DNA of 49,090 nt from NCBI GenBank assembly GCA_049599895.1, contig JBMYPC010000003.1:1-49090 (forward strand), written 5' to 3'. This stretch comes from Bacteriovoracaceae bacterium (GTDB taxonomy: Bacteria > Bdellovibrionota > Bacteriovoracia > Bacteriovoracales > Bacteriovoracaceae). The notes under the pieces were generated by a model, which searched no databases, was not told the DNA's origin, and worked only from the letters and a program-made list of their open reading frames with translations. Both the position numbers and the translations under genes were made by a program. Shown here piece by piece: positions 9,177-14,532 of the stretch (the stretch's first letter is position 1; the number at the start of each line of letters is the position of its first letter).

Positions 9177-10334
9177 ATGACAAATAAGTCTTTAAAAAGC
9201 ACATTTTACGTACTGATTCTGGGAGCTTTGCTTACTTCCTGTGCGGGTCCAATGGATCCCTTTGGGGCCAAAGAGCTGGGCCAAGTGCTCAAGGACAACT
9301 CAAAAAACCAATCAAAAGACCTTCTCAATCATTTTGACTTTGATGATTTTACTGAAAGTCCTTCTCTTGCACGAACTCCCGCAAGTGAAGGTAAAAAAAT
9401 TCATCCTGACCACAATCATCAAAGAATTAGCTTTTATCCAGAAAAACAAAACTGGCATGACCGATTTGATTTTCAAATCATTATTGAAGACGAACTTGGA
9501 ATTCCCTACGATTATGAAATCCAGATTCTTTACAATGGTACTCCCCTTTCCGATTCTCAACTTCGAAATTTTAAAGCAAGCTACACCAATGATAGAAAAA
9601 AACTGACCCTAACAAGTTCAAGTTTTAGATTGCCAGTGATGAAAGATCACGACATTCATGTTTTTTATTGGAGAGATCTTGAAACACCTCCTATGATTTC
9701 AAGCTTTGATTAACCTACTTGCCATCCCTTCCAAGGGAAAAACAAAATTTCACATTTTGACGATTTCACGGATAACCAAAAGCTTTTCTCTTCAATTATG
9801 AGACTCTCAAAATCAAGAGGAATCAACCCAAACTTTCTCTCTGCACTTGTGGCCCAGGAATCAAGTTTTAATCCAAAAGCTGTAAGCCCCGCAAGAGCAT
9901 TAGGACTTACACAGATTACTCCTATCGCTGTTGATCAATTAAAAAAGACCCATGGCCTGTCTTGGAAGATTCATCCTGATTCAAGACAGCTTAGTTATCC
10001 AGAACTTAAGCTTGCGGTTAATATGGACTATATTCATAACCAAAATGATTGGAGACTTGATGAGAAGAAATCTCTTTTAGGCGCCATGTATTACATCGAA
10101 TACCTTGATCAGTATTGGAGTAAGGCCCTTCCTGTAGAAGTTGATGAACAGACGAAAACAGATCTTCTCACTGCAAGTTATAATAGTGGTCCCGCTCGAA
10201 TAAAATATCTCTTTGAGCAAGATGGAGACAATTGGAAATCAAGTTCAAAAATTAAAGAAGCTATTAAATATTATAAAAAAGTCAAAAGCTATTGCTATAG
10301 CTTTGAGCACGGTAAACAACCAGAGAAAGGATAA
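9177..10334 (+). pseudogene. Lipoprotein lytic transglycosylase (SLT) interrupted by one in-frame TAA at 9711-9713
   Basis: ORFs 9177-9713 and 9798-10334 share a frame with 28 open codons between them; lipobox LTSC; SLT motifs QESSFNP.AVS, GLTQI, SYNSG. Confidence 0.75.
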
Positions 10335-10336
10335 TC

Positions 10337-11062
10337 ATGAGAGAAAGACCTTACTCCCGGTTCTTATATTTATTCATTGCAGGCGTGGCCCTTATTGGAC
10401 TTCCCTTACAGGTTTCCTATCTTTATGGACATCATCTCACTCAGGAATGGTCTCAGATTTGGGATAAGTTAACTGGAACCAACGTTATCCTTATGGGTCT
10501 TTTAATTGGACTCTGTGTTGGTCTTTTAAGAGCAAGCTTTTCAAAATTTCTTCTCCCTCTTACTTTGGCCATTATGATTTTTAATAATGTCATAGTCGGT
10601 ATGGATGGAGCTGATTTTACTCTTTTAGAAACGTTCGTGGCTTCTCTTTCTCTAGGGGCCTTATCTCTATGGATCATCTCAAGGCGAAGTTATAAGGCCA
10701 TGACAAATCGCTCTCTTCAATGGTGGCGCAGTGACCCTCGGTATGAGCTCAACGTTCCGGTAAAACTGGGATTAAATGAATTAGAAAGACAAGATTTTTC
10801 AACTTTTGATATTAGTCGATCAGGCGTTTTTGTGAAAACAAATTCAGAACAAGGAATTTTAAATGATCCAAAGCTCAAGCTTGGTGGAAACTTTCTTCTT
10901 TATTTTAAAGATTCAAAGTCTCCAGTGAATGTTGAGGTGGTTCGTCATCAAATCTCTCAGTCTGGTAAGTATATGCAGGGTTTAGGTCTTAAATTCGTCG
11001 ACCTTAAAACTCACCAAAAAGCTCTTATTCAGGATCTCATTCGAAATCAAGTGGGCCATTAA
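10337..11062 (+). CDS. Membrane protein with C-terminal PilZ domain
   Basis: 4 TM segments; RSDPR (RxxxR), DISRSG (DxSxxG), GLGLKF. Confidence 0.85.
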   Translation: MRERPYSRFLYLFIAGVALIGLPLQVSYLYGHHLTQEWSQIWDKLTGTNVILMGLLIGLCVGLLRASFSKFLLPLTLAIMIFNNVIVGMDGADFTLLETFVASLSLGALSLWIISRRSYKAMTNRSLQWWRSDPRYELNVPVKLGLNELERQDFSTFDISRSGVFVKTNSEQGILNDPKLKLGGNFLLYFKDSKSPVNVEVVRHQISQSGKYMQGLGLKFVDLKTHQKALIQDLIRNQVGH

Positions 11063-11460
11063 AAATCTCCCGTATGTGTGTTCGTGTGTTCGGGAGAAGG
11101 TAACCGGCTCCTGGTGTTGGAGCCGGCTACTCCGGGCCTTCTTCGGAGGGAGGGAAGGAAAGCACACGTCCTTCATGAGTAACTCAGGCCTTGAGTTACT
11201 TTTAGAGAGTTTTGGGAAAGGGATGAAGTGTGGTGATGCCTCCTTGTTAGAGTGAGCCGGGCGGGGCTCAACTGTCTTGCATAAAACTCATCCCTTAAAG
11301 ACTGGAAAAATTGGAAAAGAGAGTTCATAGGTTTCACAAAAGAAACTAAAAGGTCTTGGCGAAAATACATGAGAGGGAGGTTGATTTCCTTGTGCCCTTC
11401 CCTTTTAGTTTCTTTTTTGTGATTCATTTTTAAATTCCTTTTTAAATGCTTTGAACTTTA
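11063..11460. ncRNA. Candidate structured RNA / structured UTR of unknown class
   Basis: At least 7 stems: 11066-72/11091-97, 11100-11/11119-30, 11130-36/11142-48, 11154-59/11169-74, 11177-86/11192-201, 11218-26/11288-96, 11334-53/11401-22. Confidence 0.55.
11173..11427 (-). CDS. Possible small ORF overlapping the structured region
   Basis: AAGGA 9 nt before the ATG, but the product is atypical and runs through long hairpins. Confidence 0.25.
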   Translation of the reverse strand: MNHKKETKREGHKEINLPLMYFRQDLLVSFVKPMNSLFQFFQSLRDEFYARQLSPARLTLTRRHHHTSSLSQNSLKVTQGLSYS

Positions 11461-11646
11461 GGTTTTCTTAAGCTCTGAAAACATATTGCCAAAAAGAATT
11501 GTCAAAAATGTCAGAGAAATGAAAAATTGAAATCAAAAGGTGAGAAGGTTTTTTGCCGCGCGCAATGCCAGTTTGGCTAACTATAAGCTCTACTGTGCCT
11601 TGAACAAAGCATCTCTTTCACCAACGCACCGCTCTGGAATTTTTAT

Positions 11647-12033
11647 ATGCATAAAAGTGTGAACATTATTGTTAAAAACTCTGAAGGTAAATTCATATTA
11701 CAAATGCGAGATGGAACTCCAGGCATATGCAATCCGCTTAAATGGAATTTCTTTGGTGGAAAAATTGAGCCCAATGAAGACCCATTGTCGGCAACCATTC
11801 GAGAATTTAAAGAGGAAACTGATATTTTACTCTCTCCAAATGACTGCTCTCTTAAAGCTGAGATGGTCGCCCTTGATAATAAAGGAATAGTCTATCTTTA
11901 TGAAATTACCAAACCAATCGAATTGGATGAAATAAGACTTCTAGAAGGTGCCGGTCTTGGAGCTTTTACGCTAAAAGAAGCCTCACTAATTGAGATCACG
12001 GTACAAACGCAAAAGCAATTTGAATTAATTTAG
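11647..12033 (+). CDS. NUDIX hydrolase
   Basis: Nudix box GGKIEPNEDPLSATIREFKEETDI. Confidence 0.9.
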   Translation: MHKSVNIIVKNSEGKFILQMRDGTPGICNPLKWNFFGGKIEPNEDPLSATIREFKEETDILLSPNDCSLKAEMVALDNKGIVYLYEITKPIELDEIRLLEGAGLGAFTLKEASLIEITVQTQKQFELI

Positions 12034-12042
12034 TTTTTTAAA

Positions 12043-12084
12043 TTATGCGCCTTTAAAACGATACCCAATCCCCCTCACCATCTC
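12043..12084 (-). repeat. Duplicated 3' end of the response-regulator gene (direct repeat copy 1)
   Basis: 12053-12079 is identical to 13865-13891 (27 bp); 33/35 identical over 12050-12084 vs 13862-13896; reads EMVRGIGYRFKGA*. Confidence 0.92.
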
Positions 12085-12090
12085 TTAAAA

Positions 12091-12157
12091 AGGTACGTGG
12101 TCACCTTTGGGGCCACATGCATCTAATGTAGTCAGCCCCATAAGTAACCGCGTACCT
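12091..12157. repeat. Imperfect long palindrome (REP/REPIN-like)
   Basis: AGGTACGTGGTCACCTTTGGGGC pairs with GCCCCATAAGTAACCGCGTACCT (3 mismatches, 1 GU); inner TGCAT-CTA-ATGTA stem. Confidence 0.7.
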
Positions 12158-12218
12158 ATATCTCCCTCAGTAGGTAGCTATTATAGCAACAAACAAGATA
12201 AAAAGACTCGGAAATACT

Positions 12219-13854: not shown

Positions 13855-14532
13855 CTAAGATCCCTTAAAACGATACCCAATCCCCCTCACCGTCTCAATA
13901 AGATCATCTCTAAGCTTCTGTCTAAGCTGGAGAACATGGGTATCAACAGTTCGAGTGGTGGGATAGTTTTCATAACCCCAAACTTTATTAAGAATCTCAT
14001 CTCTTGAAAAAGCTCGGTTGGGACTTAGAGCTAATAGCTTTAAGAAATCAAACTCCATTTTAGTGAGTTCAACTTCATTGCCTTCAAACTCCACTTTTCT
14101 TTGAGTGAGGTCAATTTTAAGCTCCCCTATTTCAATAATTTCATCCGCCTGATCATCTGTAGTCGTAATAAGCTTTGAGGTTCTTAAGTGGGCCCTAATT
14201 CTTGCTGCAAGCTCTCTAGGTTCAAAAGGCTTTGCCATATAATCATTGGCCCCAGACTCAAGACCTATGACTTTGTCGATAAGCTCAGTTCTTGCAGTTA
14301 ACATGATCACAGGAAGCGCTTTTCCGTCAGCTCTTAACTCTTTTAAAAGATCAATTCCCTGCCCATCGGGAAGCATCCAATCGAGGACCACAAGCTCTTT
14401 ATCAGTGAAATCGACTTTCCTTGCATTTTCTAAAGAACTAACAAGCTCACAGTCATGACCTTCTCCGGTGAGGAATGTCTTTAGAGAAGGTCCTAGGTTT
14501 TCGTCATCTTCTACAATTAAAACTTTGCTCAT
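13855..14532 (-). CDS. OmpR-family response regulator, VxrB/WigR-like
   Basis: VEDD, LDWMLP, KPF, TRTVDTHVLQLRQKL, ETVRGIGYR; 4-nt overlap with the kinase gene. Confidence 0.93.
   Translation of the reverse strand: MSKVLIVEDDENLGPSLKTFLTGEGHDCELVSSLENARKVDFTDKELVVLDWMLPDGQGIDLLKELRADGKALPVIMLTARTELIDKVIGLESGANDYMAKPFEPRELAARIRAHLRTSKLITTTDDQADEIIEIGELKIDLTQRKVEFEGNEVELTKMEFDFLKLLALSPNRAFSRDEILNKVWGYENYPTTRTVDTHVLQLRQKLRDDLIETVRGIGYRFKGS

Follow-up and report, generated by a model that had tools for sequence, protein, structure and literature searches.

The closest described counterparts of the element analyzed here are RNAs of the sX13 (RF02232, Xanthomonas) and RNAIII type. In PMC3771888, sX13 and RNAIII are presented as Hfq-independent, C-rich small RNAs (sRNAs) that pair with G-rich ribosome-binding regions. 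The element shares with this type predicted consecutive stable stems, a predicted terminator end, C-rich motifs that are predicted to be single-stranded, and the apparent absence of Hfq. However, it is three times as long as sX13 (115 nt) and has no sequence homology to it. The best Rfam score in the region is to sX13, on the minus strand at 11061-11172, but its 26.3 bits amount to about half the gathering cut-off of 50. The loops differ as well. The apical loops of sX13 are of the 4C/5C (CCCC) kind, whereas those of the element are mostly A/C-rich and AACAC-type, with C-rich motifs in one apical loop and in a linker.

A second point of comparison comes from the predator Bdellovibrio bacteriovorus, whose attack-phase sRNAs are reported in PMC3627812 to have no homologs elsewhere. 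Its merRNA and APsRNA1-7 have much in common with the element: a predatory Bdellovibrionota host, an intergenic and structured nature, a length of a few hundred nucleotides, lineage restriction, and the lack of a conserved ORF. Unlike them, the element belongs to another family and possesses neither a c-di-GMP-I riboswitch nor a FliA promoter (TTAAG-N16-CCGATA) upstream on the minus strand; 38 such boxes exist genome-wide. Counted as exact FliA-type boxes (TAAR-N15/16-CCGATA), these 38 suggest that FliA controls many genes, as has been reported for B. bacteriovorus. Massive expression specific to the attack phase also marks merRNA; for the element, the expression record consists of contigs from unstranded environmental libraries. 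The accessible part of a preprint on the merRNA promoter (10.1101/2025.05.17.654431) adds nothing on the locus of the element.

The RNAs CsrB, CsrC, and RsmZ are similar to the element in size, and CsrA is encoded in the genome. Sponges of the CsrB/RsmZ kind display numerous GGA motifs in unpaired loops and linkers. In the element, by contrast, GGA occurs 11 times on the plus strand (9.8 expected) and 9 times on the minus strand (6.8 expected), with an unpaired probability above 0.6 for 3 of the 11 and 2 of the 9, and a close relative has lost two of the plus-strand copies. Because GGA is neither enriched nor exposed, we reject a CsrB-like role.

The final comparison is with the genome's own REP/BIME/MITE repeats, which are likewise bulged, GC-rich, intergenic hairpins; one hairpin of the element even starts with GTAG. 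Unlike these repeats, the element is constrained in sequence and single-copy by blastn and nhmmer, with no dispersed copies. Thus, it is not among the genome's REP/MITE-like repeats, and that identity was rejected. A MITE end (the 7-bp AT-rich inverted end 11060-66/11426-32) was also rejected, as it is not kept in the relative. The genome's REP/MITE-like hairpin families are dispersed, with up to 59 self hits, and some adjoin tRNA genes; examples lie at C148:5312-5640, C33:8726-9286, C71:9264-9961, C193:3052-3633, and C99:2810-3264. One Y1_Tnp gene is present at C53:3546-3872.

Genomic setting and searches for homologs

The window, 49,090 nt of contig JBMYPC010000003.1, belongs to a 3.27-Mb genome that is 97.45% complete. 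The host is an uncultured, marine, predatory member of the Bacteriovoracaceae whose genus consists of a single genome; no same-genus genome is present among the 60 relatives listed. The data set that best matches its DNA is a seawater metagenome, from which the genome may itself derive. The first-pass annotation had supposed a Bdellovibrio context. The host belongs instead to the Bacteriovoracaceae, because the best-named relatives of the neighboring response regulator are Halobacteriovorax, Bacteriovorax, and Bacteriovoracaceae metagenome-assembled genomes, at no more than 70% identity.

The structured stretch occupies the gap between a PilZ-domain gene and a NUDIX hydrolase gene (Table 1). 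The PilZ gene is the last member of a lipoprotein-SLT-PilZ cluster. In this cluster, a lipoprotein-like ORF (9177-9713) and an SLT transglycosylase ORF (9798-10334) share one frame on the plus strand with an in-frame TAA between them. The counterpart is one ORF of 347-415 aa at all nine of the relatives' loci examined, and thus the gene looks split in the present strain. PilZ relatives were found in 65 of 150 family genomes. At the 29 PilZ-ortholog loci fetched, a gene or a short gap follows the stop codon, and of 80 regulator loci, nine have the PilZ cluster facing the response regulator across a gap of variable content, in which different relatives carry different genes. Neither those 29 loci nor the nine further PilZ loci hold an element of this kind. 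The link to c-di-GMP that had been drawn from the PilZ gene therefore comes down to adjacency, given these loci and the lack of a riboswitch match.

A 35-nt direct repeat (94%; 12050-12084 and 13862-13896), whose second copy lies within the response regulator gene at its 3' end, flanks a 1.8-kb island. Besides an orphan ORF of 284 aa, the island carries a toxin-antitoxin-like pair (DUF4258 / DUF2283-HTH_17), and it can be read as having integrated into the end of a protein-coding gene, the response regulator. Inside its left end lies a bulged palindrome (12093-12159) with three further genome copies (contigs C10, C14, and C91; 81-88% identity).

Searches for homologs of the element covered relatives, viruses, and metagenomes. 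Against the 60 relatives, blastn returned short AT-rich matches only (best E 1.4e-5 over 66 nt), and the GC-rich part, compared as DNA with 236 family genomes, gave a single 29-nt match. Covariance models R1, R2, and R3 were single-sequence based and run with strict filters, which diverged homologs could escape; in 150 family genomes R1 and R3 found no match and R2 found one, which we judged to be chance (25.9 bits, many gaps). Over the 80 response-regulator loci, R1 gave no match and R2 one chance match. A loose pattern returned about 300 stretches from viral contigs, with no blastn similarity among the 120 returned, and phage and plasmid records held no match. A 20-letter pattern found four GC-rich but unrelated loci in metagenome contigs, a 23-letter pattern found none in genome contigs, and the PilZ protein as query found none in metagenome contigs. 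Because the family yields no homologs and the content of the PilZ/regulator gap varies, we regard the element as lineage-restricted by sequence and as situated in a variable slot. Paper searches on Halobacteriovorax and Bacteriovoracaceae sRNAs, with most subscription papers outside their scope, found none described.

With respect to known families, the Rfam search of the region gave no match above the cut-off. Specifically, 6S RNA, RNase P, tmRNA, and SRP RNA have no family match in the region, and each was located on another contig of the genome. The region shows no c-di-GMP-I riboswitch (RF01051) even with E allowed up to 10; a genome-wide search for this riboswitch returned nothing either, but its positive controls gave no signal, which makes it uninformative. 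The element fails membership of every RNA family tested and resembles a known kind, the structured bacterial sRNA. The earlier reading as an undescribed structured RNA, free of RNase P, tmRNA, and c-di-GMP-I motifs, agrees with these searches and, as described below, with RNA-library contigs and sequence constraint.

Predicted fold

The back-to-back hairpins of the first-pass annotation withstand folding analysis: every listed arm is present in its place, and both strands fold better than all 100 dinucleotide shuffles. Over 11050-11470, the z-score is -2.40 on the plus strand and -4.80 on the minus strand, with 0/100 shuffles as stable as the element on either; for 11060-11432 it reaches -5.58 on the minus strand. 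In sliding 100-nt windows, the signal falls at 11040-11179, 11200-11299, and 11320-11419, and flanking windows go no lower than about -2.1. Taken domain by domain, the minus strand scores better in three of four. Set against 381 intergenic regions of at least 250 nt (762 strand scores), the element takes 34th place with its minus strand and 165th with its plus strand; its folding is strong yet not unique within the genome. Several of 20 high-ranking regions inspected turned out to be tRNA loci, hairpin repeats, a piece of a group II intron, or small genes below the ORF cut-off. Two observations from the wider genome belong here. A D1-D4 fragment of a group II intron scores above the Rfam cut-off in an intergenic region that also contains tRNA-Val (L213:800-996, contig C118). 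Another intergenic region (C31:11837-12566) is single-copy, folds strongly, and lacks an Rfam match; it may contain a short ORF or another RNA.

The description of the region as GC-rich applies only to its left part (54% G+C at 11063-11203); G+C is 48% at 11204-11310 and 33% at 11311-11460, versus 37.7% for the genome. Every named stem but one exceeds a pair probability of 0.5 on one strand or both; the exception is CTCCGGG/TTCGGAG, which falls below 0.5 on both. Those above 0.5 include 11066-72/11091-97, 11100-11/11119-30, 11178-86/11192-200, the nested helices of 11218-11296, the 20-bp rod (11334-53/11401-22), and the closing AGTTCA/TGAACT; helix 11154-59/11169-74 exceeds 0.5 on the plus strand only. 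The nested domain is predicted to form a three-way junction with two hairpins (loops CCGCCC and AACAA). The apical loop of the rod is AACCUCCCUCUCAU (11369-11382), which bears a CCUCC/UCCC motif. A candidate pseudoknot, CGUGU/ACACG, is weakened in the relative. On the plus strand, the U-rich rod arm yields a Phe-rich 13-codon frame (11392-11433); a pheL-like leader was rejected, the downstream gene being NUDIX.

At the left end, a hairpin is followed by five U on the minus strand only. This hairpin is a predicted intrinsic terminator, which begins 3 nt beyond the PilZ stop codon; a simple terminator scan, with a loop limit of 8, left it uncalled.

Table 1. Genes, predicted structures, and sequence features at the locus, in positions of the window
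Feature	Position	Strand	Basis or remark
PilZ-domain gene, membrane-anchored	10337..11062	+	PF07238, E 2.3e-10; convergent with the candidate RNA
Candidate standalone noncoding RNA, about 370 nt	11061..11432	-	5' end somewhere around 11432-11465
3' hairpin, 7 bp, 18-nt loop with tandem AACACAC repeat, then U5	11061..11097	-	p 0.96
12-bp hairpin, loop AACACCA	11100..11130	-	p 0.99; contiguous on - (G.U), A.C mismatch on +
Possible cUUCGg hairpin	11137-11150	+	predicted stem; tetraloop register read off the sequence
C/U-rich stretch, mostly unpaired, two CCUCC anti-Shine-Dalgarno-like motifs	11144..11156	-	unpaired probability 0.79-0.82
6-bp hairpin	11154..11174	not assigned	pair probability and sequence
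84-codon ORF	11173..11427	-	judged non-coding
Near-palindromic 9-bp hairpin, loop AGGCC	11178..11200	-	p 0.98; AGGCCU self-complementary
Nested domain, outer 9-11 bp stem	11218..11296	-	z -3.13 on -, -1.40 on +
Pyrimidine-rich single-stranded linker with 9-nt tandem duplication	11297..11323	-	duplication unit absent in the relative
20-bp rod with internal loops	11334..11422	-	z -5.09
U-rich run directly past the rod	11423..11431	+	sequence; possible terminator if the plus strand is a 3' UTR
Sigma-54-like site, imperfect, without the -13 G	11476..11492	-	weak promoter candidate
NUDIX hydrolase gene	11647..12033	+	PF00293, E 3.1e-11; divergent from the 5' end of the candidate RNA

RNA-library contigs, sequence constraint, and strand

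Two metatranscriptome runs of one study contain contigs from a close relative, run X3 over 11084-11418 and run X4 over 10955-11432. These runs were picked because they hold words of 9800-12100, and their contigs give no strand, ends, or level and may derive from library DNA. Across 19.9 kb, the relative is represented in X4 by a single full-length contig (10955-11432, depth 13.6), besides a 50-nt match within an unrelated contig. X3 contains the element contig (333 nt, depth 6.85), coding pieces of 151 nt and 174 nt (depth 2 and 4.9), and one partial contig. Run X2 (a small share) covers 11766-12100 only, and runs X5 and X6 have nothing over the element. The RNA-library contigs favor the element over the neighboring genes.

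The relative differs from the element at 8 of 340 interior sites (2.4%). At third-codon sites of the PilZ and response regulator genes, the count is 22 of 91 (Fisher p 2e-10), and at all coding sites compared it is 28 of 274 (p 4e-5); the X3 coding contigs behind these counts may stem from a different strain than the X3 element contig. Within the X4 contig alone, the comparison is 3/26 versus 8/340 (p 0.036). Divergence of the element is roughly ten-fold under that of third-codon sites, and we therefore consider its sequence to be constrained.

The changes themselves are few. X3 and X4 share two indels, a single base within a G-run and a single unit of the 9-nt linker duplication, and X4 additionally lacks terminal-loop bases, one repeat unit included. 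In the 12-bp hairpin, the sole change falls in the loop (11116), and no substitution is listed in the rod from 11325 to the contig ends. A change at 11157 breaks the 6-bp hairpin, which, by hand alignment, a shifted register can re-pair on either strand; the substitution at 11250 replaces a C-G pair by U.G in the minus strand. The U-run after the 3' hairpin is interrupted. In this one close relative, no compensatory double change was seen, and one change leaves its pair intact as a wobble on the minus strand.

These comparisons bear on the notion that the stretch is a non-functional relic or a DNA-level element, such as a REP/MITE-like hairpin or a single-strand origin, that is merely read through. 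The variable gap between the PilZ gene and the response regulator, the nearby island, the several hairpin repeat families of the genome, good folding as DNA (z -6.1), and the lack of homologs found outside the genus would all fit such an origin. The low divergence and the preference of the RNA-library contigs for the element over its neighbors speak against it, as do its single copy and the lack of a phage or plasmid match, and we assign this explanation a slim probability.

Another reading is that the stretch encodes a protein. The RNA would then be the mRNA of the 84-codon ORF, or a type I toxin-antitoxin-like mRNA. The ORF has AAGGA 8 nt ahead of its AUG and, by hand alignment, the relative's 9-nt deletion is in frame while the change at 11177 shifts the stop by one codon. 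However, none of the four substitutions falls at a third position and none of 77 third sites is changed. Of 1067 real gene pieces of 85 codons, just 0.4% have a dicodon score as low as its -0.41, a value that is unremarkable for the 631 intergenic frames. Searches of 215 family genomes (best E 9e-4), Pfam, and the Atlas gave no credible homolog of the product, which also lacks hydrophobic character. A coding role is very improbable.

Concerning the transcribed strand, the first-pass annotation leaned toward plus. We consider the minus strand likely, because terminator polarity, one poly(A)-like tail, and folding all point to it. Regarding the tail, one contig ends in an 8-nt loose end before 11084 that contains seven T and does not match. 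In a polyadenylated library, these T would correspond to a poly(A) tail added to the 3' end of a minus-strand RNA. In vitro polyadenylation is used in marine metatranscriptomics according to PMC4410273, a practice that may not apply to the study behind X3 and X4. Unpaired bases on the minus strand are 38% A. The relative's substitutions do not discriminate between strands: of nine changes shared by its contigs, four lie at well-paired sites on either strand. A minus-strand RNA would be standalone, because its upstream gene is divergent and it has no downstream gene to lead, PilZ being antisense. The promoter scan found no convincing site for the element, and the sole sigma-70-like site, on the plus strand, points toward NUDIX. 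The sigma-54-like site in Table 1, compared with the common sigma-54 consensus, is among 55 loose matches genome-wide and outside the six strict ones.

The plus strand retains real support from the cUUCGg hairpin, the U-run after the rod, the X4 contig, which extends 108 nt into the PilZ gene, and the interruption of the minus-strand U-run in the relative. Transcribed from that strand, the stretch would extend the lipoprotein-SLT-PilZ transcript as a long, structured 3' UTR, or be released from this transcript by processing as a stable RNA, with its end at the U-run 11423-11431. The X4 contig takes in the final 108 nt of PilZ and goes no further than 11432, the PilZ stop codon has no plus-strand terminator after it, and the domain with the possible cUUCGg hairpin scores -2.40 on the plus strand versus -1.26 on the minus strand. 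Against this stand the poly-T loose end, which indicates a minus-strand 3' end, the weaker overall plus-strand z-score, the A.C mismatch in the 12-bp helix on that strand, and the 29 and nine PilZ loci of relatives that lack the element. We judge a 3' UTR unlikely.

Possible modes of action

We consider it likely that the element is a functional noncoding RNA. It represents a lineage-restricted structured RNA that is real, constrained, and probably expressed. By analogy to sX13, we tentatively suggest, at somewhat less than even chances, that it pairs through C/U-rich anti-Shine-Dalgarno (anti-SD) motifs with mRNA ribosome-binding sites, without Hfq. Specifically, a standalone RNA of ~370-400 nt, probably from the minus strand, would start from a promoter of its own, within the gap that separates it from the divergent NUDIX gene, and would end at the hairpin-U5 terminator immediately beyond the PilZ stop. 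Stable helices would protect the RNA and present three CCUCC motifs (in the rod apical loop at 11380, and at 11153 and 11149) as single strands. The exposed CCUCC/UCCC motifs could then pair with ribosome-binding sites of mRNAs, and translation would be repressed or modulated independently of Hfq.

The motif counts are consistent with this proposal. CCUCC occurs three times on the minus strand (shuffle mean 0.9, p 0.043; intergenic expectation 0.2), each copy with an unpaired probability of 0.79-0.85, and UCCC occurs six times (shuffle mean 3.2, p 0.057); these p-values are nominal, nine motifs on two strands making 18 tests. By hand alignment, all three CCUCC motifs survive the relative's changes; only one of the three is in an apical loop. 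Hfq independence holds in the sense that the host appears to be without Hfq and ProQ, neither of which had a match in the 97.45% complete genome, while positive controls were detected. Because of this, a constrained, likely expressed RNA of 370-400 nt could be an entry point to chaperone-free riboregulation of the predatory life cycle, with a weight limited to one uncultured genus.

Targets were sought by scanning seven segments of the element against 2963 start regions. For every segment, the best energies lie inside the range of four shuffles, and thus no target is supported. A nuoI-like gene, whose ribosome-binding site has a 10-bp match to the rod loop (-20.3 kcal/mol, within the shuffle range), serves as a lead only. 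An enoyl-CoA hydratase leader (-29.1) is likewise inside the shuffle range and was rejected.

A bolder version, to which we give little credence, is that the element exemplifies a new class in Bacteriovoracaceae predators: an abundant multi-domain RNA, the riboswitch-free counterpart of merRNA, that would mask Shine-Dalgarno sequences broadly by means of repeated anti-SD motifs and loop-loop contacts. Translation would thereby be damped in the starving, non-growing attack phase. Folding or multimerization could proceed via CGUGUG (11168-63) with CACACG (11088-83) and via the self-complementary AGGCCU loop.

The terminator, starting 3 nt past the PilZ stop, and the one contig that bridges element and gene raise another option. 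A cis-antisense RNA could tune the convergent PilZ operon via overlapping 3' ends; such an overlap would leave the constraint over 340 nt unexplained. Alternatively, the RNA could be a merRNA-like ligand sponge with the predicted three-way junction as its aptamer. There is precedent in a 445-nt stand-alone riboswitch RNA of B. bacteriovorus, which PMC3627812 proposes as a c-di-GMP store, but no riboswitch family matches the region. We hold this pair of explanations to be improbable.

A further motif on the minus strand is ACAC, which occurs there six times (shuffle mean 1.7, p 0.005), five of these with an unpaired probability of at least 0.96. A(C/U)AC loops could titrate an RNA-binding protein, for example one of the three RRM_1 proteins that the genome encodes, so that the RNA would serve as a sponge or scaffold for protein. 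The relative has AAUAC in place of AACAC in two separate loops (11088 and 11116). However, four of the six ACAC motifs belong to a single tandem-duplicated loop, which inflates the enrichment, and one copy of that duplication is missing in the relative. Overall, a sponge is unlikely. For a CsrB-type sponge in particular, GGA is unenriched and mostly paired on both strands, and csrA adjoins fliW in a flagellar cluster. This cluster, at C20:4270-7425, consists of a flagellin-family gene, csrA, and fliW.
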